From NCBI GenBank assembly GCA_934148015.1, contig CAKPCU010000004.1:10800-74799 (forward strand): a stretch of DNA of 64,000 nucleotides, in the 5' to 3' direction. The translations under genes and the position numbers were made by a program. Below the pieces are notes generated by a model. The model searched no databases and was not told where the DNA came from. It was given only the letters and a program-made list of their open reading frames with translations. This stretch comes from an uncultured Bacilli bacterium (lineage in GTDB: Bacteria > Bacillota_I > Bacilli_A > RF39 > UBA660). The stretch's first letter is position 1. Every line of letters begins with the position of its first letter. Shown here in pieces: positions 10,617-46,627 of the stretch.

Positions 10617-10928
10617 ATGTATTGCATGATAGAAACTGCTTTTGATAATATTGATGAAGCTAAACAGGTGGTATCTAAGTTATTAGATAAAAAATTAGTT
10701 GCTAGTTGTCAAGTAATTGAAAGTAATAGTAAATGGAATTGGAAGTTTAAGCTAGAAGAAAGTAAAGAGTTCTTAGTTCTTATGAAAACAAAGAAATCTT
10801 TGCAAGAAAAAATTTATAATGTAATAAGAGAAATTCATAGCTATGATTGTTTTGAATTTGCTGTATTTGATTTAACTAGTTGTAATAAGGAGTATTTAAA
10901 TTGGATTGAGGAAGAAACTAATGAGTAA
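10617..10928 (+). CDS. cutA: Divalent-cation tolerance protein CutA
   Basis: About 100 aa with the CutA1 pattern (KLVASCQV..W.WK..LEES.E..LLMKT..IHSYD.FE...DL....YLNWI). Confidence 0.75.
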   Translation: MYCMIETAFDNIDEAKQVVSKLLDKKLVASCQVIESNSKWNWKFKLEESKEFLVLMKTKKSLQEKIYNVIREIHSYDCFEFAVFDLTSCNKEYLNWIEEETNE

Positions 10929-28266: not shown

Positions 28267-30000
28267 ATGAACGGTGCACAAATACCAAATAATGGTAGTA
28301 ATTTAAATAATGTTAATAACATGAACAGTAGTGTAAATAGTAATAATGTTAATACATCTAATAATATAAGTAATACTCCAAATACTAACAACTTGGATAA
28401 AAGAGCACTTGAAGAACAAAAAAGAAGAGAAAATATTGCTAAAAAACAAGCTGAATTTAATAAATATGTTCAAAAAGCTAGACAAGATGAAGCTAGAAGA
28501 TTTGAAGAACAAAAGAAAATTATCGCTGAAATGCAAAAGAAACAGCTTGAAGTAAATAAAAAAGAAGAAGAAAAAAAGAAGAAAATAGCCGAGATAGATG
28601 CTAAAAGTAAGAAAAGACAAAAACAATTGGAAGAAAGTGCCTCATCTAGTAAATTTAGTGATAAACTAAAAGCTTGGTATTTAAAAGCTTCTACACCTAA
28701 ATATAATGAACTTGAACTTAAGGCTAAAAAAGCTGTTTTAGAAGAACAATTTAAAGATGATAAAAATAATTTAGCTAGATTAAAAACACCAATACTATTT
28801 AAGTATAAAGCTAAAACACCAGATGGTAAGATAGTAACTGGTACTATGGATGCACTATCTAGAGTAGATATACATTCCTTTTTAACTCAGGAAGGTTATG
28901 AAGTATATGAAATATATGCCGTTAAGAATTCTTCTAATATAAACATAATGTCATTTAAGTTTAAAATATCTAAGCTTATATTCTGCTTATCTCAGTTATC
29001 TGCTTATTTAAAAGCTGGTATTGCTCTTGCTGATGCTGTTAAGTTAATTGAAAATCAAACTAAAAGCATGAAAGAAAAGAGAGTATGGAGAGCTGTTTAT
29101 TATGATTTATCAATGGGTGATAATTTATCTTCTGCTCTTGAAAAAAGAGGTAATGCTTATCCTAAGTTACTAATTAACATGATTAAAACAGCAGAGATGA
29201 CTGGTAATTTACCTGAAACTTTAGATGATATGATAGATTATTATACTGAAACTGAAACTACTAGAAAGCAAATGATTTCAGCTTTAATGTATCCTACAAT
29301 AGTTGTTATATTCGCAATAGCTGTTATAGTATTTATGCTTATATATATAGTTCCTAGTTTTGCTGGTATATTTAAAGATATGGGAACTGATGAAATTCCA
29401 GCTATTACTACATTCTTACTTAATTTAAGTGACTTTTTAGGTAAATATATACTTCAAATATCTATAGGTGTATTTTCAGTACTTCTTATATTTACACTTT
29501 TATATAAATACTATAAACCAGTTAGAAAAGTTCTTCAAATATTTGCAATGAAACTTCCTGTAATAGGTAATATAATTATATATAATGAAGTTACAATGTT
29601 TTCTAAGACATTTGCTAACCTTTTAAATCATAATGTATTTATAACAGATTCAATAGATGTATTATCTAAAATTACATCAAACGAAGTTTATAAGAAACTA
29701 ATTCATGATACTTCTGTTAATTTAACTAAGGGTGAATCTATTTCAGCATCATTTAAAGATCACTGGGCTTTTCCTTATATAGCATACCAAATGATATTAA
29801 CTGGTGAAAAAACTGGTAGGTTAGGACAAATGATGGAAAAAGTATCACAGTATTATCAAGAACAACATAGGACTTTAGTTAACCGTTTAAAGACTTTAAT
29901 TGAGCCTATATTAATAGTTGGTCTTGCTGTTATAGTTGGTGGTATACTTCTTGCAATAGTAGTTCCAATGTTCTCATTATATGATCAAGTATCATCATAG
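28267..30000 (+). CDS. pilC: Type IV pilus/T2SS platform protein (GspF/PilC family) with ~175-aa N-terminal extension
   Basis: Two GspF repeats and three TM segments from about aa 178 (FKYKAKTPDGKIVTG..). Residues 1-177 are Asn-rich, then K/E-rich coiled coil. Confidence 0.9.
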   Translation: MNGAQIPNNGSNLNNVNNMNSSVNSNNVNTSNNISNTPNTNNLDKRALEEQKRRENIAKKQAEFNKYVQKARQDEARRFEEQKKIIAEMQKKQLEVNKKEEEKKKKIAEIDAKSKKRQKQLEESASSSKFSDKLKAWYLKASTPKYNELELKAKKAVLEEQFKDDKNNLARLKTPILFKYKAKTPDGKIVTGTMDALSRVDIHSFLTQEGYEVYEIYAVKNSSNINIMSFKFKISKLIFCLSQLSAYLKAGIALADAVKLIENQTKSMKEKRVWRAVYYDLSMGDNLSSALEKRGNAYPKLLINMIKTAEMTGNLPETLDDMIDYYTETETTRKQMISALMYPTIVVIFAIAVIVFMLIYIVPSFAGIFKDMGTDEIPAITTFLLNLSDFLGKYILQISIGVFSVLLIFTLLYKYYKPVRKVLQIFAMKLPVIGNIIIYNEVTMFSKTFANLLNHNVFITDSIDVLSKITSNEVYKKLIHDTSVNLTKGESISASFKDHWAFPYIAYQMILTGEKTGRLGQMMEKVSQYYQEQHRTLVNRLKTLIEPILIVGLAVIVGGILLAIVVPMFSLYDQVSS

Positions 30001-30011
30001 GAGGTTATAAT

Positions 30012-30794
30012 TTGACTTTAGAAGTTTTAATAGGAACCATAATATTTATATTTGGACTAGTATTTGGTTCCTTTTATAATGTAGTAGGGTATAGACTACC
30101 TAACAATATGTCTTTAATATATCCTAATTCACACTGTCCAAAATGTAATCATGAACTTAAGTTTTATGAATTAGTTCCTGTTTTGTCTTATATATTTTTA
30201 GGTGGTAGATGTAAAAAATGTAAAGATAAAATATCTATAAAATATCCTATATTTGAACTTTTAACAGGTATATTGTTTTTATTATCATACATAGTATTTG
30301 GTTTAAATATAAAGTTTTTTATAGCAATAACATTTATATCAGTTTTAATAGTTATAACAATTAGTGATATAGAAAGCTTTATAATTCCAGATGAGGTTTT
30401 AATAACTGGGGTAATACTAATTATAATAGAATTAATTATTAAAATGCGTTTAGAAAATCTAAATGTATTAGAAGGACTTATTTATCCAGTATTAAATGGT
30501 ATTGCATCATTTACATTATTATATTTATTTAAATTATTTGGAGATAAAGTATTTAAAAAAGAAAGTTTAGGTGGGGGAGATATTAAATTATTGTTTGTTA
30601 TAGGTTTAGTATTAGGTTTTGATATGTCTATAGCATCAGTTTTTTTAGCTTCATTTATAGCACTACCATTATCTATTGTAAGCTTAATAAAAAATGATAA
30701 TAATATAATACCATTTGGACCATACTTATCACTTGCAAGCGTTATAATACTTCTTTTGGAATTAAATATAGATAAAATACTTATGTTTATATAA
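30012..30794 (+). CDS. pilD: Prepilin peptidase (A24 family, PilD/ComC)
   Basis: N-terminal CPKCNH..CKKCKD zinc motif, polytopic, catalytic GGGDIKL. TTG start. Confidence 0.9.
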   Translation: MTLEVLIGTIIFIFGLVFGSFYNVVGYRLPNNMSLIYPNSHCPKCNHELKFYELVPVLSYIFLGGRCKKCKDKISIKYPIFELLTGILFLLSYIVFGLNIKFFIAITFISVLIVITISDIESFIIPDEVLITGVILIIIELIIKMRLENLNVLEGLIYPVLNGIASFTLLYLFKLFGDKVFKKESLGGGDIKLLFVIGLVLGFDMSIASVFLASFIALPLSIVSLIKNDNNIIPFGPYLSLASVIILLLELNIDKILMFI

Positions 30795-30821
30795 AGTTCT
30801 ATTTTTAAAATAGAGCTTTTT
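30794..30821 (+). terminator. Terminator after pilD
   Basis: AAGTTCTATTT-TTA-AAATAGAGCTT (one G-T pair) followed by T run. Confidence 0.55.
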
Positions 30822-30859
30822 AAATTGTAACTCTAGTAACTGTTTTTAAAAAATAAAAA

Positions 30860-30883
30860 ATGCCCAATTTTTTACTAGGGCAT
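30860..30883 (-). terminator. Terminator after pilB (minus strand)
   Basis: ATGCCC..GGGCAT stem; on the minus strand it is followed by a long T run (complement of 30846-30860). Confidence 0.55.
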
Positions 30884-30889
30884 TTCTTT

Positions 30890-32308
30890 TTATATATCTA
30901 ACATTTCTGCATCAGAATTATTTCTTATATTACTAGGTGTTTGTTGCATATTTATATTATTATTAATCTGATTATTTAAAGTAGGAGTATTTCCTATGGC
31001 TGCATTATTATTTGTTGCTATATTAATATTAGGTACTGTATTAGTATTTGCTGCTATATTAGTAGTTCCATTATTATTTGCATTAGATGCCTTTATTTCT
31101 CCTTCTAGTACTATTTTTGTTGAAGAATCATCTAAATCTACAATTCTAAGTATTTCTTCTATAGTAGTAACATTTTGAAGTACTTTAGCTAAACCATCTT
31201 GAAGAAGAGTTTTAGTATCACCTGTATAAACAAGTTTTCTTAATTCTTCTTTAGGTACTTCATTTGCTATAGCATCTCTTATTTCTTGATTAATAACTAA
31301 TACCTCATGTATAGCGATACGACCTTTATAACCACCAACACATTCAGGACATCCTTCAGCGTAAGCAAGTTCATTTATATCTATACCTAAATTAGCTTTA
31401 ATTAGCTTTTTTTCATATTCAATAGCAGGTCTTTTTTTCATACAATGTGGACAAATTCTTCTAGCTAATTTTTGTGATACTATACCATTTAATGAACTAG
31501 CTAAAAGATAAGTTTCAACTTCCATATCAGTTAAACGTTCAATTGTATTTAATGCATTATTAGTATGAAGTGTAGATAGTACTAAGTGACCAGTAATAGA
31601 TGCTCTAACTGCTATTTTAGCTGTTTCATCATCTCTTATTTCTCCGATCATTATTATATCAGGGTCTTGTCTTAAAATAGAACGAAGTACGTTAGCAAAC
31701 GTAAGACCAATTTCACTATTAACTTGTATTTGGTTAATACCATCAATACCCATTTCAACTGGATCTTCAACGGTAACTAGATTAACTTCAGGAGTGTTAA
31801 GTAACTGTAAAAGAGAGTATACAGTAGTAGATTTACCAGAACCAGTAGCACCAGTTACTAATATAATTCCATTTGGTTCTTTAATTAAATCTTTCATTTT
31901 TCTTAAATTATCAGGAGAAAATCCTAAACTTTCAAGACCTTTAAGTGAAGCTGTATAATCAAGTATACGAATAACTATTTTTTCTCCTTCATTAGTAGGA
32001 AGAGAAGATACACGCATATCTAAATTTATATCACGAATAGTAGTTTTAATAGCACCATCTTGAGGAAGTCTAGACTCTGTAATATCCATACCAGATATTA
32101 TTTTTAATCTAGCTACTAGATTTTTTCTTATGTTTTCTGGAATAATTGCATAATCTATTAAAATACCATCTATTCTAAATCTAACCTTTATATGATCTTC
32201 ATATGGATCAAAGTGTATATCACTAGCACCAGATTCAGCAGCACTATATAATATTTCAGTAACTACATCTGTTATTGGTAATTTAGTAAAATCTATTTGT
32301 TTTAACAT
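30890..32308 (-). CDS. pilB: Type IV pilus assembly ATPase (GspE/PilB/ComGA family) with Asn-rich C-terminal tail
   Basis: Walker A GATGSGKST, Asp/His boxes, tetracysteine CPHC..CPEC. The last ~80 aa are N/T/I low complexity. Confidence 0.92.
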   Translation of the reverse strand: MLKQIDFTKLPITDVVTEILYSAAESGASDIHFDPYEDHIKVRFRIDGILIDYAIIPENIRKNLVARLKIISGMDITESRLPQDGAIKTTIRDINLDMRVSSLPTNEGEKIVIRILDYTASLKGLESLGFSPDNLRKMKDLIKEPNGIILVTGATGSGKSTTVYSLLQLLNTPEVNLVTVEDPVEMGIDGINQIQVNSEIGLTFANVLRSILRQDPDIIMIGEIRDDETAKIAVRASITGHLVLSTLHTNNALNTIERLTDMEVETYLLASSLNGIVSQKLARRICPHCMKKRPAIEYEKKLIKANLGIDINELAYAEGCPECVGGYKGRIAIHEVLVINQEIRDAIANEVPKEELRKLVYTGDTKTLLQDGLAKVLQNVTTIEEILRIVDLDDSSTKIVLEGEIKASNANNNGTTNIAANTNTVPNINIATNNNAAIGNTPTLNNQINNNINMQQTPSNIRNNSDAEMLDI

Positions 32309-32447
32309 AAATACCTCCCCTTATTATTCCTTTATACTTTTATAAAAATAAAATCATTATTATTCTTATCTTTACTCTAGATTTTATTATAATAATATTA
32401 TATAATATATTTTAGAAGATATCAAGTATTTGAAAGGGTGATAACTA

Positions 32448-33005
32448 GTGAAAAAGAATAATAAAGGTTTTTTCTTAGCAGAAACAATAGTAGTATTAGC
32501 TCTTGTTACAACAGTAGTAGTCTTTGTATCTGCAAACGTACCTAATCTTTATAAAAATTATAAATTACAAATAGAAAGTTATGATAGAACAGAAGATATA
32601 TATTTACTTAAGGCTATATATGAAGCTAATGAAGAAAAAATAAAGAAAGCTACAGAAAGTGATTGTTCCGGCACTGAAATAGGAGCTAAAATTTATAATA
32701 ATGGAGAGTTGCCATCTTCAGGTGGAGATAGCACTGGTGCTGGATATTATTTTGAGAATGATGATTTGAAACTACCAAACGACTATAAATTCGACAGTAA
32801 ATTTTATCTTACTAGTTATTTAGTTACACCTTCTGTATCTGGAGATTATAACTTTAACAAATATTTAAAAAGAGTGAGGAAGACATCTAACTTTCAAACT
32901 GATTATAGATTAATTGGAAAACTAGTAAATGGTGGTAAAATTACTTATGCATCAATAAGGATTGATAATCCAAATCCTAATAGAAGATGTAATCTTGGAG
33001 GCTAA
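32448..33005 (+). CDS. Minor pilin-like protein (prepilin-type N-terminus)
   Basis: MKKNNKG|FFLAETIVVLALV has Gly-1 and Glu+5. GTG start after AAGGGTGA. Confidence 0.7.
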   Translation: MKKNNKGFFLAETIVVLALVTTVVVFVSANVPNLYKNYKLQIESYDRTEDIYLLKAIYEANEEKIKKATESDCSGTEIGAKIYNNGELPSSGGDSTGAGYYFENDDLKLPNDYKFDSKFYLTSYLVTPSVSGDYNFNKYLKRVRKTSNFQTDYRLIGKLVNGGKITYASIRIDNPNPNRRCNLGG

Positions 33006-33007
33006 TT

Positions 33008-34156
33008 ATGAAGAAATTAAATAAAAAAGGTGTTACATTAATAGAATTAATAGTTAGTTTTGCGATAGTTAGTGTTGCTATGATATATTTTTATCAAACT
33101 ATAGTTGATTTACATAGAATGTATAAAAATTCAAATAAAGCAACTGATGAATTTGTAAATAAAGATTATGCTTTAAGAGTACTTGATGCCTGGGCTACTA
33201 AATCAGGTAATAATTTAGACAATATTAAATCTACTGCAAGCGTTCAAACTAAAATTTGTGAAAAATACAGTATGTTTTGTGCTGATACTAAAACAGATGT
33301 AGATAGTACTAATATTGATTTTAAAAAAGTTACATTAAAAGATGAAGATGAAAAAATTGAAGTTATATACTATAAGTATAATAAATCTTTAATTACTGAA
33401 CAACTTGAATATTTAGGTGCATTAGTAGATGGTAATATCACGGATGTGTCAAAATTTGACAGTATAAAAGATAAAACTGATGTTTTGGAAGTTACTGTTG
33501 ACTCAGACACCAAAAAAATAAATTATATTATTAAAGATAGTGTTGGTAATGAAAAATACAGTATAACAAATAAAGATACAATAAATGAAATAATAAAAAA
33601 TAATGTGAAAGATAAACAAGAAACAAACATAAATACAGAAGTTCAAAAGTTAATGGGTCAAAATTATAACATTATAGAAAGCATTGAAATTGTTAAAGAA
33701 GATAGCGATGAATCAAAAAAAGAATATGCAAGAGTATATAATGTAGTAGATTCCTCAGGTAACGTGATAGCTAAAAATATTTATCAGATAGAAATAGTAG
33801 TAAATTTAGAGAATATGAATACTGAAGAGCTTAATAAAGAGCACATAATAAATGGAGTTAATGTGAAATCTATTAAATTTAATAAAGAAGGTTTATACAA
33901 ATTAAAATATTTAGTTTCAGCAGAGGATAAAAAATGTATGATTAGGTTAGATAGTACTACAAGCATACATTTTAATAAAGATAAGATTATTCAATTAGAT
34001 GGATTAACTATAAGTGATGTAAGCCGTGAAATAGAAGATAAAAATGTATATATAACACTTAATAAAATAAAATTAGAACAAACATCTGAGCTAAATTATA
34101 TGTCTTTTGGTGGAAAATGTACAATTAAACTAGTAGAAGCCTACAAATATAAATAA
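33008..34156 (+). CDS. Large minor pilin-like protein (prepilin-type N-terminus)
   Basis: MKKLNKKG|VTLIELIVSFAIVSV followed by a 350-aa unrecognised domain. Confidence 0.7.
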   Translation: MKKLNKKGVTLIELIVSFAIVSVAMIYFYQTIVDLHRMYKNSNKATDEFVNKDYALRVLDAWATKSGNNLDNIKSTASVQTKICEKYSMFCADTKTDVDSTNIDFKKVTLKDEDEKIEVIYYKYNKSLITEQLEYLGALVDGNITDVSKFDSIKDKTDVLEVTVDSDTKKINYIIKDSVGNEKYSITNKDTINEIIKNNVKDKQETNINTEVQKLMGQNYNIIESIEIVKEDSDESKKEYARVYNVVDSSGNVIAKNIYQIEIVVNLENMNTEELNKEHIINGVNVKSIKFNKEGLYKLKYLVSAEDKKCMIRLDSTTSIHFNKDKIIQLDGLTISDVSREIEDKNVYITLNKIKLEQTSELNYMSFGGKCTIKLVEAYKYK

Positions 34157-39535: not shown

Positions 39536-40456
39536 ATGAAGAGAAAAAGTAATGGATTTACACTGATAGAATTATTAGCAGTAATAGTAATACTTGGTAT
39601 TATAATAACAATTGTAGTAACAAATGTAGTTAAATATATTGGAAAAGCAAGAGAAGGTGCATTTAAAGATACTTATTCTAAAGTACTTAGAGATGTAAAA
39701 AATAAAATAGCTTTAAAGAATTTAGGAGATACTACAGAAGAAGTGGAGTGTAGAGATTATTCAGAATGTGCTAGTTTATATGATGTATCAACAAATGATG
39801 TAAATCTTATAGTAACTAAAGTAAATGAAAATTACATAGTTAATATGGAAGGAAAAGGTAGCTATGCTGGTATATCAATGGAAGAATCTACTTGTCCTAA
39901 GAATTCATATTGTAGTACAAATTCTATCTCCTCAAATATTTCATCAAATGGAGAAGAAAAAGAAACTAATATAGGAAGTTTACTAGTTTTAAATGTAAAG
40001 AATAAAAATCCTATAAATTGTAGTAGTGGTGAAGCTTGTAGTAAGTATGGAGAAAAAATTACAGAAATAATATCTAGTACTGGTGGATATGCGGTAACTC
40101 AAGAGAGTGAAATAATAATATATGATAAAAATGGAAATATATTAACTACTACTGATCAAGCCAAAGCTCAAAAGTATAAGAATTTGATAAGTTTGACTAG
40201 AGGTGCAGATAATGATAAAGTTTATAATGATAATACACGTATTACATGTGATAATGAAAATGCTTATTATAAAAGAAGCTCGAAATATAATAACATTGAT
40301 GAAGTTTATTTATATAATGAGAAATTGATTAATTCCGAATATAAATATTTATATTATCTTAACGAAGATAAAACTAAAAAAACACGATTGTTTATATTTA
40401 AATGTGCTGGAAAATTTTCAAATACTCATAGTAATTATAAAGAATGGACTAGCTAG
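39536..40456 (+). CDS. Type IV pilin-like protein, 306 aa (large C-terminal domain)
   Basis: MKRKSNG|FTLIELLAVIVILGIIITIVVTNVVKYI. The N-terminal protein sequence matches the downstream cassettes but uses different codons. Confidence 0.85.
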   Translation: MKRKSNGFTLIELLAVIVILGIIITIVVTNVVKYIGKAREGAFKDTYSKVLRDVKNKIALKNLGDTTEEVECRDYSECASLYDVSTNDVNLIVTKVNENYIVNMEGKGSYAGISMEESTCPKNSYCSTNSISSNISSNGEEKETNIGSLLVLNVKNKNPINCSSGEACSKYGEKITEIISSTGGYAVTQESEIIIYDKNGNILTTTDQAKAQKYKNLISLTRGADNDKVYNDNTRITCDNENAYYKRSSKYNNIDEVYLYNEKLINSEYKYLYYLNEDKTKKTRLFIFKCAGKFSNTHSNYKEWTS

Positions 40457-40473
40457 AAAAACATAAATTAATA

Positions 40474-40501
40474 AACAGCATTTTAGTAATGTTGTTTTTT
40501 T
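40474..40501 (+). terminator. Rho-independent terminator after the 306-aa pilin gene
   Basis: AACAGCAT-TTTAGTA-ATGTTGTT (one G-T pair) followed by T7. It insulates cassette A from upstream transcription. Confidence 0.6.
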
Positions 40502-40521
40502 GTACTTTCTTTTCTTAATTC

Positions 40522-40690
40522 TATTTTTTAAGCAACTATCTTAAGGATAAAAAGTGTTTAAAAAATAAAAGAAAGAAGGAAAAAATTATGAAAAAAAATA
40601 AAAAAGGTTTTACTTTAATTGAATTACTAGCTGTTATTGTTATACTTGGTATTATTATTACTATCGTTGTAAGTAACGTTGTTAAGTATA
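40522..40690 (+). repeat. Pilin 5' module copy L1 (leader + RBS + codons 1-34)
   Basis: ..AAGCAACTATCTTAAGGATAAAAAGTGTTTAAAAAATAAAAGAAAGAAGGAAAAAATTATGAAAAAAAATAAAAAAGGTTTTACTTTAATTGAATTACTAGCTGTTATTGTTATACTTGGTATTATTATTAC... Near-identical to L2-L4. The inner end is approximate. Confidence 0.9.
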
Positions 40691-41085
40691 TTAATAAAGC
40701 AAGAAAGGGTTCTTATGTTGATGCATACAAGGTTTTAGTAAAAGATATGCAAACACAATTAATGGCTAATGAGATGGACAATGGAACAGCTAGTTTAGCG
40801 ATATGTAATGATAATAGTACGGTTTCTGAAATTAAAAAACGTGTAAATAAAAATGATTATAAGGGTTCTTATAAAGAAGAAACTTTAAAAATGCAAGTAG
40901 AAGCATGGAAAACTGGTGAAAAATTAAATGGGTACACTGTTACTATTAATCCGGGAAGTAATTTTAGTTCTGTAACTAGTATTACATGTCCTGTTGTTAG
41001 TTCTTCGGGTGTTAAAAGTGCTTGTGCTGGAGCTGAAATTAGAATACACTTAGCATTAGATGGTACTATAACAAGTGGAAGATAA
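40588..41085 (+). CDS. Type IV pilin, variant cassette A (165 aa)
   Basis: MKKNKKG|FTLIELLAVIVILGIIITIVVSNVVKY constant N-terminus. Body about 90% identical to cassette A'. Confidence 0.9.
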   Translation: MKKNKKGFTLIELLAVIVILGIIITIVVSNVVKYINKARKGSYVDAYKVLVKDMQTQLMANEMDNGTASLAICNDNSTVSEIKKRVNKNDYKGSYKEETLKMQVEAWKTGEKLNGYTVTINPGSNFSSVTSITCPVVSSSGVKSACAGAEIRIHLALDGTITSGR

Positions 41086-41086
41086 T

Positions 41087-41132
41087 TAAAAAAATACTAT
41101 AATGAAGATCAATATTTCATTATAGTATTTTT
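41087..41132. terminator. Bidirectional terminator T1 shared by cassettes A and B
   Basis: A run, perfect 13-bp stem ATACTATAATGAA/TTCATTATAGTAT, loop GATCAATAT, T run. Same element as 43338..43383. Confidence 0.8.
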
Positions 41133-41143
41133 ATTTGTGTTTC

Positions 41144-41611
41144 TTATTCAGAATCTTTTAATTCTCCTTCTGGACTCATATACAAAATTACTGTGCCTTT
41201 AGCTATAGGACTACCATTACCACATTTCGCATGATTAGGACAATATTTTCCACTAATGTCTAAATCTTTAAAACTATTTGTACCTTTTATTGTAATTACA
41301 TGATTACTTTTACCAGTTTGAACAGCAGCAATTATTATATCCATGTTTGATGAATCATAATCATAGATTCCTTTGCATGCAGTAGCTGTAGTACATGTTG
41401 TTACAGTTCCATCGCCTCCTTCAACTGCTTCTGACATAAGGGAATTTTGAACATTTTTAACAAATACACCAACTGCATCTTTATAAGAACCCTGCCTAGC
41501 TTGTTTAACATACTTAACAACATTACTTACAACAATAGTAATAATAATACCAAGTATAACAATAACAGCTAGTAATTCAATTAAAGTAAAACCTTTTTTA
41601 TTTTTTTTCAT
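41144..41611 (-). CDS. Type IV pilin, variant cassette B (155 aa)
   Basis: Same 34-aa N-terminus; distinct C-terminal body related to B' (roughly half the residues shared by eye). Confidence 0.9.
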   Translation of the reverse strand: MKKNKKGFTLIELLAVIVILGIIITIVVSNVVKYVKQARQGSYKDAVGVFVKNVQNSLMSEAVEGGDGTVTTCTTATACKGIYDYDSSNMDIIIAAVQTGKSNHVITIKGTNSFKDLDISGKYCPNHAKCGNGSPIAKGTVILYMSPEGELKDSE

Positions 41612-41673
41612 ATTTTTTTCCTTCTTTCTTTTATTTTTTAAACACTTTTTATCCTTAAGATAGTTACTTAAAT
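41509..41673 (-). repeat. Pilin 5' module copy L2 (inverted relative to L1 and L3)
   Basis: The reverse complement reads TTTAAGTAACTATCTTAAGGATAAAAAGTGTTTAAAAAATAAAAGAAAGAAGGAAAAAAATATGAAAAAAAATAAAAAAGG... The inner end is approximate. Confidence 0.9.
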
Positions 41674-41683
41674 TTTATATAAT
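41655..41683 (+). promoter_or_regulatory. Candidate promoter of the recombinase gene, straddling the L2 boundary
   Basis: TTAAGA (inside repeat L2)-N17-TATAAT (unique DNA), 28 nt upstream of the int ATG. Confidence 0.4.
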
Positions 41684-41710
41684 AGCTTCCTAGAAAGGAG
41701 CAAATACTAT

Positions 41711-42649
41711 ATGTTAATAATTAAAAGAATAAAATATAAAGATTATTTATATGAATGGTTAATTAATAAAAAAAGTTTTATTAAAGAATCAACTTATGCA
41801 AATTATTCTAATATTGTATTTAGTTATATAACACCTAAACTTGGTAATTATTATATAAGTGAATTAAATAATAAAATAATACAAGATTATATATTATATC
41901 TACATAATACTAAAGGATTAGCGATTAAAACAATAAAGGATATAATTATGATAGTAAAAGAAAGTATAAAGTGTGCTATTAATAATAATATAATTAAAAA
42001 TTTTGATTTAAAATTTAACTATCCTAAAAGTAATAATATTAATCATATGTATGTATTAACAAAAAGAGAACAAAATATATTAATGGAATATGTATTAAAT
42101 AACATTAATAATAAAAGTATAGGTATTTTAATATCATTACTTTTAGGTATTAGAATTGGAGAATTATGTGCATTAAAGTGGGAAGATATAGACTTTAAAA
42201 AGAAAATATTACATGTTAATAAAACTTTACAAAGAATATATATAAAAGACATAGATAAAAATTTATCTAAGGTTATTGTATCTCTTCCTAAAACTAACAG
42301 CTCTAATAGGGATATTCCAATAAATAAAGAATTATTAGATATACTTAAAACATTAAAAACTAATAAAGAAGATTATATATTAACTGGAAATAATAAAAAT
42401 ACGGAACCTAGAGTATATAGAAGTTATTTTAATACAGTTTTAAAAAAGAATAGTATAAAACGTATTAAGTTTCATTCACTTAGACATACGTTTGCAACTA
42501 ATTGTATATCTCTTGGAATAGATTATAAAACTGTAAGTGAACTATTAGGACATTCTAACATAAATATCACTTTAAATTTATATGTACATCCAAGATTATC
42601 TCAAAAGAAAAAATGTATAGAAAAAATATATAAAAATGTTATTAAATAA
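41711..42649 (+). CDS. Tyrosine site-specific recombinase (phage-integrase/Xer family)
   Basis: N-terminal SAM-like core-binding domain. Catalytic signature R (GIRIGELCALKWEDID), HSLRHTFAT (HxxR), LGHSNINITLNLYVH (H..Y). Confidence 0.9.
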   Translation: MLIIKRIKYKDYLYEWLINKKSFIKESTYANYSNIVFSYITPKLGNYYISELNNKIIQDYILYLHNTKGLAIKTIKDIIMIVKESIKCAINNNIIKNFDLKFNYPKSNNINHMYVLTKREQNILMEYVLNNINNKSIGILISLLLGIRIGELCALKWEDIDFKKKILHVNKTLQRIYIKDIDKNLSKVIVSLPKTNSSNRDIPINKELLDILKTLKTNKEDYILTGNNKNTEPRVYRSYFNTVLKKNSIKRIKFHSLRHTFATNCISLGIDYKTVSELLGHSNINITLNLYVHPRLSQKKKCIEKIYKNVIK

Positions 42650-42690
42650 CGTAAAATTTACGTAAAATATATAATAAAAATTCAAACTAA

Positions 42691-42719
42691 TTGACAATGA
42701 AATTTATTGATGATATTAT
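42691..42719 (+). promoter_or_regulatory. Near-consensus SigA promoter inside the central segment, currently reading into cassette B'
   Basis: TTGACA (42691-42696)-N17-TATTAT (42714-42719). About 150 nt upstream of the B' ATG. Confidence 0.6.
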
Positions 42720-42807
42720 TAAATCAGAATATAAAGGAGGCGAGATTTGAAGTATAAGTTTTGTTTAATTAAGACAAAATAAATTAAATGGTTAACACAC
42801 ATATATC

Positions 42808-42972
42808 TTTAAGTAACTATCTTAAGGATAAAAAGTGTTTAAAAAATAAAAGAAAGAAGGAAAAAATTATGAAAAAAAATAAAAAAGGTTTTACTTTAAT
42901 TGAATTACTAGCTGTTATTGTTATACTTGGTATTATTATTACCATTGTTGTAAGTAATGTTGTTAAGTATAT
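42808..42972 (+). repeat. Pilin 5' module copy L3
   Basis: TTTAAGTAACTATCTTAAGGATAAAAAGTGTTTAAAAAATAAAAGAAAGAAGGAAAAAATTATGAAAAAAAATAAAAAAGG... The inner end is approximate. Confidence 0.9.
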
Positions 42973-43336
42973 AAGTCAATCAAAACAAGGTGCCTTTAAA
43001 GATGCAGTTGGTGTATTTATAAAGAATACACAAACCCAAGTACTGGCTTCTGATATAAGTGGTATAGGTAGTATGACAACATGTACTAAAAATTCTGAGT
43101 GTAAAAGTAAATATCAGTATGATACAGCGAATATGGATATAACAGTAAGTCAAAATACTGGTAAAAACTATAAAATAGTTATAACAGGAATAGGTGGTTT
43201 TAATAATGTTGATATGGCTGAAACAGATAAATATGGTAATAAAAAATATTGTCCAAAAGAAGCTGCCGAGTGTACTAAGAATGGTGTAATCACTTTATAT
43301 ATGAATAGCGACGCTGAAATAAAAGAAGCTGAATAA
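42869..43336 (+). CDS. Type IV pilin, variant cassette B' (155 aa)
   Basis: ATG 42869 sits behind the shared RBS. The ORF-track start at 42788 merely reads through the leader module. Same 34-aa N-terminus. Confidence 0.9.
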   Translation: MKKNKKGFTLIELLAVIVILGIIITIVVSNVVKYISQSKQGAFKDAVGVFIKNTQTQVLASDISGIGSMTTCTKNSECKSKYQYDTANMDITVSQNTGKNYKIVITGIGGFNNVDMAETDKYGNKKYCPKEAAECTKNGVITLYMNSDAEIKEAE

Positions 43337-43337
43337 T

Positions 43338-43383
43338 AAAAATACTATAATGAAGATCAATATTTCATTATAGTATTTTTTTT
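43338..43383. terminator. Bidirectional terminator T2 shared by cassettes B' and A'
   Basis: Identical 13-bp stem and loop to T1, in the same absolute orientation. Confidence 0.8.
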
Positions 43384-43385
43384 AA

Positions 43386-43856
43386 TTATCTTCCACTTGT
43401 TATAGTACCATCTAATGCTAAGTGTATTTTAATTTCAGCCCCAGAACAAGCATCTTCAACAGGACATGTAATACTAGTTACAGAACTAAAATTACTTCCT
43501 GGATTAATAGTAACAGTGTACCCATTTAATTTTTCACCGGTTTTCCATTCTTCTACTTGCATTTTTAAAGTTTCTTCTTTATAAGAACCCTTATAATCAT
43601 CTTCAACTACACATTTTTTAGTTGCCTCATTATCATTACATGTCACTAAACTAGCTGTTCCATTGTCCATCTCATTAGCCATTAATTGTGTTTGCATATC
43701 TTTTACTAAAACCTTGTATGCATCAACATAAGAACCCTTTCTTGCTTTATTAATATACTTAACAACGTTACTTACAACGATAGTAATAATAATACCAAGT
43801 ATAACAATAACAGCTAGTAATTCAATTAAAGTAAAACCTTTTTTATTTTTTTTCAT
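43386..43856 (-). CDS. Type IV pilin, variant cassette A' (156 aa)
   Basis: First 70 aa identical to cassette A. Differs in two short patches only. Confidence 0.9.
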   Translation of the reverse strand: MKKNKKGFTLIELLAVIVILGIIITIVVSNVVKYINKARKGSYVDAYKVLVKDMQTQLMANEMDNGTASLVTCNDNEATKKCVVEDDYKGSYKEETLKMQVEEWKTGEKLNGYTVTINPGSNFSSVTSITCPVEDACSGAEIKIHLALDGTITSGR

Positions 43857-43922
43857 AATTTTTTCCTTCTTTCTTTTATTTTTTAAACACTTTTTATCCT
43901 TAAGATAGTTGCTTAAAAAATA
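43754..43922 (-). repeat. Pilin 5' module copy L4 (inverted relative to L1 and L3)
   Basis: Reverse complement is identical to L1 from TATTTTTTAAGCAACTATC.. through codon 34 and beyond. The inner end is approximate. Confidence 0.9.
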
Positions 43923-44010
43923 AGAATGAATGTTATTTTTAGAGTTGTTTTACTTTCTTTTTCTTATTTATTACTGTATAATTAGATAGTAGGAAATGGA
44001 GGCGAGATAT

Positions 44011-46366: not shown

Positions 46367-46627
46367 ATGTTTTTTAACAAAAAATGTTGCTGTAATCAGC
46401 AAAATAATTGGCAAGAAAATTCTTGCGGATGTGATTCAATAATAGAACAACCTATAGAAAAATGTATTGAAAGAAATATATGTCATAAAGTAGAACATGT
46501 ATGCCCAATACATACTAGAATAATTAATAATCATATATATGAACATACATATAGACCAGAATATACTTGTTCAGAAGAAAATACTGTAACAAATATTGAT
46601 CCTGGTTGTTCTGGATTTAATTTTTAA
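46367..46627 (+). CDS. cotD: CotD-like Cys/His-rich spore coat protein
   Basis: 86 aa, with VEHVCPIHTRIINNHIYEHTYRPEY resembling the CotD H-x-H/HT repeats, and Cys clusters. Confidence 0.5.
   Translation: MFFNKKCCCNQQNNWQENSCGCDSIIEQPIEKCIERNICHKVEHVCPIHTRIINNHIYEHTYRPEYTCSEENTVTNIDPGCSGFNF

Follow-up and report, generated by a model that had tools for sequence, protein, structure and literature searches.

A locus in the genome of an uncultured gut bacterium of the Bacilli (GTDB lineage RF39, UBA660) places four type IV pilin genes around a gene for a tyrosine recombinase, and the arrangement probably constitutes a programmed DNA-inversion switch for the pilus subunit. The window analysed is a stretch of 64,000 nucleotides (nt), positions 10,800 to 74,799 of the forward strand of contig CAKPCU010000004.1 (assembly GCA_934148015.1), and all coordinates refer to it. 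We put at roughly 0.75 the probability that a segment carrying the recombinase gene and a predicted promoter, P, toggles between two of the pilin genes, B' and B. This reading draws on the anatomy of the locus, the conservation of a site motif, the kinship of the recombinase to enzymes of hsdS loci, and rearranged forms found in natural populations, in metagenomes of other people. In taking the region for an invertible pilin locus with a tyrosine recombinase embedded at its centre, the initial annotation is supported by the isomers and the kinship.

Organization of the locus and a proposed switch

Open reading frame (ORF) prediction recovers five ORFs, with the four pilin genes disposed mirror-wise about the recombinase gene; together with Pfam analysis it bears out the gene coordinates, the convergent pairs, and the symmetry described earlier. 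These genes, and a longer pilin gene beside them, are as follows (aa, amino acids):

40588-41085, + strand: pilin cassette A, 165 aa, PF07963
41144-41611, - strand: pilin cassette B, 155 aa, PF07963; adjoins the promoter side of the central segment in the rearranged contig L008
41711-42649, + strand: tyrosine recombinase, presumed invertase, 312 aa, PF00589 and PF14659
42869-43336, + strand: pilin cassette B', 155 aa, PF07963; downstream of P in the window arrangement
43386-43856, - strand: pilin cassette A', 156 aa, PF07963
39536-40456, + strand: long fifth pilin, just upstream of the cassettes and outside the repeat family, 306 aa, PF07963

All five pilins match PF07963 (N_methyl) and TIGR02532 in Pfam and TIGR profile searches. 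Type IV pilins are marked by a class III signal peptide (G/FTLIE), a hydrophobic alpha-1 helix, and a cognate prepilin peptidase and assembly ATPase in the genome; the profile matches, with the peptidase and ATPase genes of the window, place the five proteins among them. The A and A' proteins are 86% identical, with differences confined to two short segments, and B and B' are 51% identical. A sequence search of the PDB with B' returned only generic N-terminal pilin matches, and no specific pilin subtype could be assigned. The central gene matches PF00589 (at 2.6e-28) and PF14659 and encodes a tyrosine site-specific recombinase: R148, H255, R258, H281, and Y291 are invariant in a nine-sequence alignment, leaving the catalytic R-H-R-H-Y set intact. 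Pfam detects these two domains only, and no resolvase-type serine invertase domain.

Each of the four cassettes begins with the same module of 165 nt, comprising a 61-nt leader that includes the ribosome-binding site (RBS) and codons 1-34. The shared module of about 165 bp recognized in the initial annotation is confirmed, with only six variable positions across the four copies, but its boundaries have had to be corrected: homology begins sharply at 40527, 41672, 42808, and 43917, and the repeat that joins A and A' is much longer. The modules and the inverted repeats that contain them are:

40527-40691, + strand: module L1, with core 40527-40548 (TTTAAGCAACTATCTTAAGGAT), leader with RBS, and codons 1-34 of A
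41508-41672, - strand: module L2, with core 41651-41672 (TTTAAGTAACTATCTTAAGGAT on the - strand)
42808-42972, + strand: module L3, with core 42808-42829
43753-43917, - strand: module L4, with core 43896-43917 (TTTAAGCAACTATCTTAAGGAT on the - strand)
40522-40815 with 43629-43922: inverted repeat I1, 294 nt, 99% identity
41446-41672 with 42808-43034: inverted repeat I3, 91%
40527-40753 with 41446-41672: inverted repeat I4, 89%
42808-43056 with 43669-43917: inverted repeat I2, 86%

Every module opens with a palindromic core, TTTAAG[T/C]AACTATCTTAAGGAT, in one of two versions: L2 and L3 have TTTAAGTAACTATCTTAAGGAT, L1 and L4 have TTTAAGCAACTATCTTAAGGAT. The 22-nt sequence is present in four copies in the window and in none of 100 shuffles. 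The core of a tyrosine recombinase site is typically a pair of short inverted arms around a centre of 5-7 nt, and the palindrome is a likely crossover site. Its two versions differ at the junction of arm and spacer, where the base is C in L1 and L4 and T in L2 and L3. Mismatches in the central region lower recombination in other tyrosine recombinase systems; thus exchange between outer and inner modules may be rare or disfavoured.

The candidate transcription signals of the locus are:

42691-42719, + strand: predicted promoter P, TTGACA-17-TATTAT with an upstream TG; the best promoter-like site of the region (11/12)
41655-41683, + strand: promoter-like site of the recombinase gene, with its -35 (TTAAGA) inside the L2 core and its -10 (TATAAT, 41678-41683) 5 nt outside the core
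42734-42807, + strand: 5' untranslated region (UTR) between P and L3, AAAGGAGGCGAGATTTGA..., conserved in the window and in two related loci, L031 and L062
41090-41132: hairpin hp1 between the convergent A and B, flanked by an A-run and a T-run; -20.7 kcal/mol, z = -5.65; repeat D4
43338-43380: hairpin hp2 between the convergent B' and A'; -21.9 kcal/mol, z = -7.41
40473-40504, + strand: terminator-like hairpin with U-run between the long pilin gene and L1; 10-bp stem, 66-nt fold of -11 kcal/mol, z = -2.3

P is inside the flippable segment, past the stop codon of the recombinase gene and before L3, and in the window it points at L3 and B'. In three species (those of the window, L031, and L062) its -35 and the TGA that precedes the -10 have not changed, and the -10 differs by one base in L062 only. 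To judge from these signals, B' is probably the pilin expressed in the window arrangement, and B would be expressed once the central segment had flipped. In a promoter consensus scan of the region, nothing upstream of either A or A' scored 9/12 or better. As it lacks an upstream promoter-like site, A is probably silent in the window arrangement, and A and A' are probably promoterless reserve cassettes. The hairpins hp1 and hp2 are probably bidirectional terminators, and the hairpin at 40473-40504 would shield A from upstream transcription.

The -10 of the recombinase gene is kept beside the core in L031, L062, and other Bacilli-type pilin loci, at a distance of 3-5 nt, and the overlap of this promoter with the core suggests autoregulation. 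The conserved 5' UTR contains a strong RBS-like AAAGGAGG, followed by a TTG-initiated mini-ORF of 11 codons and a short AT-rich palindrome. An Rfam search of the 142-nt 5' UTR for a riboswitch or other known RNA gave no significant match, and its fold is no better than those of shuffled sequences.

These features suggest how the switch might operate. A central segment of 1135 bp (41673-42807) would be the moving part: it carries the recombinase gene and, downstream of it, the putative outward-reading promoter P, and it is bounded by inverted palindromic cores (TTTAAGT-AACTA-TCTTAAGG), each at the promoter-proximal end of a pilin leader. The recombinase presumably binds the cores of L2 and L3 and catalyses inversion of the segment, turning P either toward B', as in the window, or toward B; P would be the sole effective promoter. 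Because the crossover would fall in the shared leader, and because the RBS and the first 34 codons are the same, either orientation would yield a complete pilin that starts in the same way and differs in its globular domain. The pilus machinery would then receive the same kind of precursor with a differing globular part. A and A', behind their hairpin terminators, with no recognisable promoter and with C for T in the core, may be held in reserve. They could join in rarer exchanges (outer inversion, outer-by-inner recombination, and deletion) and could also undergo homologous recombination or gene conversion with each other. The two-way toggle between B' and B is the part of this scheme that the sequences support directly; antigenic variation among all four cassettes is conceivable.

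The uniformity of the module also counts in favour of the switch. Of the first 34 residues of the long fifth pilin, 29 are the same as in the cassettes, but 16-18 of the 29 codons concerned show synonymous differences, and the 61 nt upstream of it match the cassette leaders at only 19-20 of 61 positions. Among the four cassettes, 0-3 of 34 codons differ, and the upstream match is 59-61 of 61. Directly past codon 34, A-type cassettes compared with B-type ones, and B compared with B', fall to an identity of about 55%. Homology of A and A' extends beyond the module, at 99% over 294 nt and then at 93-95% up to the 3' end. The contrast with the long pilin thus indicates that the module has been held uniform at the DNA level, with sharp edges, and its uniformity exceeds both chance and protein constraint.

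Rearranged forms in natural populations

Public metagenome assemblies were the source of contigs encoding a recombinase or pilin identical to one of the window, and the modules of these contigs were genotyped at the six variable positions together with the outer flank and the gene body. The initial annotation suggested comparing assemblies of related strains for isomeric arrangements, and such arrangements exist: most same-species contigs have the window arrangement, and five (L008, L154, L056, L044, and L045) differ from it.

The clearest isomer is L008 (ERZ27287274, assembled by MEGAHIT at k141), whose recombinase protein is 100% identical to that of the window. The recombinase side of its central segment leads into a complete L3-type module and B'. 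The promoter side leads into a complete L2-type module, B, A, and finally the left flank. L008 is thus the product of an L2-by-L3 inversion, the predicted flip of the segment that carries recombinase and promoter, and in it P would face B. The crossover maps to module positions 0-59, a leader interval that contains the core, and is the only one that could be mapped closely. It had been supposed that exchange would take place in the part of the module that codes for the N-terminal helix; in L008 it took place in the leader instead. The longest exact match between L2 and L3 is about 75 nt. Since this is shorter than the assembler's k of 141, the junction should require real reads, and an artefact of repeat collapse is unlikely.

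The same flip is seen in a decayed form in L154, from a divergent strain in a Hadza sample. From the left flank its order runs through the long pilin, an A-like cassette with a frameshift, and a different pilin of 151 aa on the - strand to P and the recombinase gene, also on the - strand. The recombinase gene is truncated at its 5' end at 41965, where a few base pairs of microhomology join it to the L4 leader and, with that, the right flank. This locus is locked in the flipped orientation. Promoter invertons of the fimS type are defined by a functional promoter between inverted repeats that occurs in both orientations within one population; here the promoter is a predicted one, and the two orientations of the segment come from different samples (L008 and L154 versus the rest). 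As a separate observation on L154 (1340-3520), identity to the window is 99.7% in its right flank but only 88.7% in the left flank and long pilin, and there is no relation between the cassette bodies. The pilin locus looks like a hotspot for replacement at the strain level.

Deletion between direct module copies, also foreseen in the initial annotation, is documented by L056 (ERZ27287105), a 19.7-kb contig that reads polC, rsmD, long pilin, A'(+), B'(-), and nfo and has no recombinase gene. The module adjoining nfo is a hybrid, L4-type at position 6 and L3-type at 135-150. The hybrid module and the loss of two cassettes imply at least two inter-module events, one between an outer and an inner copy and one a deletion between direct copies. 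The suggestion that L1-by-L4 exchange flips the whole interior holds to the extent that such an outer inversion is implied by L056; this deletion derivative is its sole trace, and the intact form was not observed.

The last two contigs, L044 and L045, come from two samples and two assemblers and have a common structure: nfo, L4, and the full A' body are followed by the 3' tail of A, hairpin hp1, and B. The crossover lies in the last 50 nt or so common to A and A', before the A-run past the stop codon. There is no core there, and the window holds no further copy of the core, beyond the four, at the 3' crossover region of A and A'.

Two further kinds of candidate were set aside. L032 (ERZ28621234 scaffold_6005) has the nfo flank and L4 leader running directly into the recombinase gene at 41765, across an A-rich overlap of 16 nt; the junction is probably a scaffold artefact or a microhomology deletion, and the contig was not used. 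Contigs that end inside modules (L004, L005, L034, L035, L042, L043, L142, and others of about 1.1-1.2 kb) were considered as evidence of mixed orientation and rejected as indecisive, because repeats alone break short-read assemblies and because the ends lie off the diagnostic single-nucleotide polymorphisms. A scan of JGI metagenomes with a 38-nt leader pattern gave two contigs and no new arrangement.

Several observations weigh against a programmed switch. Among genotyped same-strain junction contigs, 14 of 15 have the window orientation, with B' on the promoter side, so that switching may be rare or one state may be selected. Each isomer is the consensus assembly of a different sample, and one consensus per sample does not distinguish fixed strain differences from ongoing switching. 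The body swaps between L1 and L2 and between L3 and L4 that the initial annotation envisaged were not seen: in contigs with an exact A or A' protein (14 and 21 read; 13 distinct places shown), neither gene ever adjoins the recombinase side or the promoter side of the segment. About 100 nt of identical coding sequence past the core are not explained by crossover at the core only. The exchange in L044 and L045, away from any core, looks like homologous recombination between A and A', and the recombinase would be dispensable for some rearrangements. Finally, promoter-like hexamers are common in a region so rich in AT (34 found versus 39 expected in shuffles; the genome has 25.6% G+C), and P is assigned from its score and conservation only.

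Some of these points would be met by general RecA-dependent homologous recombination and gene conversion among pilin paralogues, as in the sap system of Campylobacter fetus, with the recombinase uninvolved. We regard this as unlikely. It would account well for L044 and L045, since the 294 nt at 99% and the 93-95% identity of the remainder of A and A' are sufficient for homologous recombination, and the crossover interval of L008 (0-59 of 165 nt) would also fit a random crossover within the module. Diagnostic positions that are polymorphic between strains (C or T at position 150 of L1, A or T at position 59 of L2) fit patchy conversion between copies. Random exchange does not, however, predict that homology edges should coincide exactly with a conserved core, as they do in at least eight loci with otherwise differing leaders, or that the same motif should bound the repeats of hsdS loci carrying related recombinases. 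Nor does it account for a recombinase kept catalytically intact in the pilin loci examined, which fall in three recombinase clades, or for a recombinase -10 placed consistently 3-5 nt from the core.

It is more improbable still that the locus is a static cluster of major and minor pilin paralogues, formed by inverted duplication and co-expressed, with the rearranged contigs as rare accidents or assembly errors. Most assemblies do show a single arrangement, it is common for a type IV pilus locus to contain several pilins that are alike at the N-terminus, and short-read assembly across repeats can err, as it seems to have done in L032. Against this stand five rearranged forms from different samples and assemblers, with junctions that need read support at k = 141, and the identity of leaders and synonymous sites at the nucleotide level, unlike the neighbouring long pilin. 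Co-expression is also difficult to reconcile with the missing promoter-like sites of A and A', and a static origin with the recurrence of the layout, recombinase included, in distant taxa.

Relatives of the recombinase and genomic setting

A protein search with the recombinase found 4691 relatives at E <= 1e-10, of which three full-length sequences are 84-91% identical to it and a large group is about 65% identical. For two members of the latter, P0053 and P0064 (about 65% identity over 97-99% of the length), all contigs have the order hsdS(-)/recombinase(+)/hsdS(+) beside hsdM and hsdR. When 80 genome loci with a recombinase alignment were classed by their neighbours, 38 proved to be flanked by hsdS and nine by pilin genes, the remainder having other neighbours or being too short to class; the full tally of loci classed as hsdS-flanked stands at 40. 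The genes flanking the recombinase in the window are PF07963 pilins, in which Pfam finds no Methylase_S domain.

The layout pilin(-)/recombinase(+)/pilin(+) occurs in ten loci outside this species, L031 and the nine just counted, in metagenome-assembled genomes (MAGs) and metagenomes:

Pilin-flanked loci with a Bacilli-type core: L031, L062, L086, L089, L115 ('Clostridium sp. CAG:594'), L117, L120
Pilin-flanked loci with a variant core: L127, L136, L140, all Ruminococcus MAGs

In all ten, inverted repeats of 150-300 nt cover the pilin 5' ends and leaders that flank the recombinase gene; in L031 the leader and 5' coding regions are identical on both sides. In the species collection the genome nearest to this one is that of L062, a MAG labelled 'uncultured Bacilli bacterium' from Hadza gut samples; its recombinase has 89% identity to that of the window, and the figure for L031 is 84%. 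Homology of the repeat arms in the Bacilli-type loci starts at or within the palindrome TTTAAGT-N5-ACTTAAGGAT(A), and the remaining leader varies between species. The Ruminococcus loci have the core CCTTAAA-N7-TTTAAGG, overlapping the RBS, and hsdS loci have CTTAAGG(A) at the recombinase-proximal end of repeats of 77-92 nt. An inverted pair of CTTAAGG within 260 nt on either side of the recombinase gene is present in 26 of 36 hsdS loci, six of ten pilin loci, and none of 25 other contexts.

A rough neighbour-joining tree, without support values, places the pilin-associated recombinases in three clades among those of hsdS loci. The enzyme of the window has 65-66% identity to hsdS-locus enzymes, versus 55-59% to the pilin-locus enzymes of L086, L115, and L117. 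By sequence kinship and shared site motif it is assigned to the clade of hsdS inversion loci.

This company makes it highly improbable that the recombinase is the integrase of a small mobile element inserted by chance between pilin genes. The Pfam family name, 'Phage integrase', might suggest as much, but the 1.1-kb segment has no other mobile-element genes, the locus has a fixed position between rsmD and nfo in several strains and a sister species, and the relatives examined are flanked by inverted copies of one target gene family.

More distant relatives, at 40-60% identity (L097-L139), are flanked by neither hsdS nor pilin genes; examples are L109 and L110, L119, L125, L126 (Peptoanaerobacter stomatis), and L137 (Mediterraneibacter glycyrrhizinilyticus). 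Several of these genes adjoin secreted or surface proteins of 1400-1600 aa, and the paired CTTAAGG is absent. They may control other targets or be different promoter invertons. Among the search matches, many homologous recombinase genes are on contigs no larger than the recombinase segment between its repeats, at about 1.1-1.25 kb (for example L142). Repeats break short-read assemblies at such loci, which are thus probably under-represented in MAGs.

The pilin locus lies between the housekeeping genes rsmD and nfo, downstream of polC, and its position is the same in several strains and in the sister species. A cluster of type IV pilus machinery genes (28267-34156) lies 6-12 kb upstream, separated from it by polC and rsmD. 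The Pfam assignments in this cluster are:

28267-30000, + strand: PilC-like T2SSF platform protein, 577 aa
30012-30794, + strand: prepilin peptidase (Peptidase_A24)
30890-32308, - strand: PilB-like T2SSE ATPase
33008-34156, + strand: protein with an N_methyl motif only, 382 aa

The 382-aa protein could be a tip or minor pilin. The cluster also contains an ORF of 185 aa with no Pfam match. An 86-aa cysteine-rich ORF at 46367-46627 (MFFNKKCCCNQQNNWQENSCGCDS...), again with no Pfam match, is a called gene in all same-species contigs.

In the window the long pilin gene (39536-40456) adjoins rsmD and is in tandem with A. Its homologue in L062 (4268-5065) adjoins nfo and is divergent from the A-like cassette, and that in L031 (1-354) is also divergent from the A-like cassette. 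The position of the long pilin thus differs across species, and the wider locus has been rearranged in ways that simple inversions between L sites do not explain.

Known inversion systems and significance

The nearest known systems are the phase-variable type I restriction-modification loci in which hsdS is inverted with an embedded tyrosine recombinase, as in Streptococcus pneumoniae (PMC4948785). Other examples are the hsd loci of Mycoplasma pulmonis and those of gut Bacilli or 'Tenericutes' MAGs (L011-L030, L063-L111). The pilin locus shares with them the recombinase clade (about 65% identity), the layout target(-)/recombinase(+)/target(+), and inverted repeats that span leader and first codons and start at a CTTAAGG-containing core; in the two hsdS loci read, a -10 extended by TG is found past the recombinase gene. 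The targets here are pilins, however, and a second internal repeat for shuffling half-genes (target recognition domains) is lacking. The product is the subunit of a surface filament rather than a methylation specificity, and there are four whole-gene cassettes, in two convergent pairs with putative terminators.

In its plan the locus also recalls the S-layer (sap) locus of Campylobacter fetus, where nested inversions were reportedly described by Dworkin and Blaser in the 1990s. There a single promoter is said to lie on an invertible segment between opposed cassettes with a conserved 5' region, and larger nested inversions to engage other cassettes. Inversion of sap is reportedly largely RecA-dependent, with no dedicated recombinase in the segment, whereas here a tyrosine recombinase gene and a conserved core are present. 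In the Hin/fljBA switch of Salmonella, too, the DNA that inverts holds both the recombinase gene and a promoter reading outward. Hin, though, is a serine invertase that acts with Fis and an enhancer and turns one operon on or off; the choice here would be between two genes.

Two systems act on pilins. In the shufflon of R64 and IncI plasmids, Rci acts at sfx sites to vary PilV (PMC9045228; PMC9881135, introduction). It has in common with the present locus a tyrosine recombinase and several sites in both orientations that vary a type IV pilin. R64, a system on a conjugative plasmid of Gram-negative bacteria, swaps C-terminal segments onto a fixed pilV 5' part behind a fixed promoter; here whole genes would be chosen by a moving promoter. 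Pfam finds no Shufflon_N/PilV domain (PF04917) in the proteins of the locus. In Moraxella bovis and Moraxella lacunata, inversion of the Q and I pilin genes by Piv (cited in PMC5903667, ref. 19) also selects between two pilin genes. The Moraxella promoter and constant 5' coding part are fixed outside the segment and crossover is in the coding region, whereas the candidate promoter here lies inside the segment. Piv is not a tyrosine recombinase.

A literature search found no description of a pilin/recombinase/pilin inversion locus in Bacillota; its coverage was incomplete, which makes this weak evidence of absence. A domain-wide survey reports that 'Pilin' is enriched among the product names of predicted inversion targets, with an odds ratio of 8.4, and does not describe such loci (PMC9881135). 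Programmed inversion by a tyrosine recombinase is known; as far as could be checked, what is new is the target, the layout, and the host lineage. It is possible, though short of probable, that a portable toggle of recombinase and outward promoter, with TTAAG-type cores of about 21 bp, has moved several times between hsdS and pilin targets in gut Bacillota and has here grown into four-cassette, nested-inversion antigenic variation of the major pilin, the first for a Gram-positive type IV pilus.

Type IV pili matter as major adhesins, as targets of antibodies, and as receptors for phage, and inversion-based variation of pilins is classic in a few Gram-negative bacteria and plasmids. The bacterium described here can probably change the pilus protein that it displays, and the benefit may be escape from antibody or from pilus-specific phage, or a change in adhesion. 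The locus breaks assemblies, and many contigs end in its modules. The small recombinase/core pair might be tried as a genetic toggle. The host lineage is known from MAGs only, and the locus offers a testable handle on its interaction with host or phage. In gut Bacilli the clade to which this recombinase belongs drives the epigenetic phase variation of hsdS; here it appears to work on a surface structure, and the occurrence of pilin recombinases in three clades of the rough tree points to a modular switch able to capture gene families with a shared 5' end.

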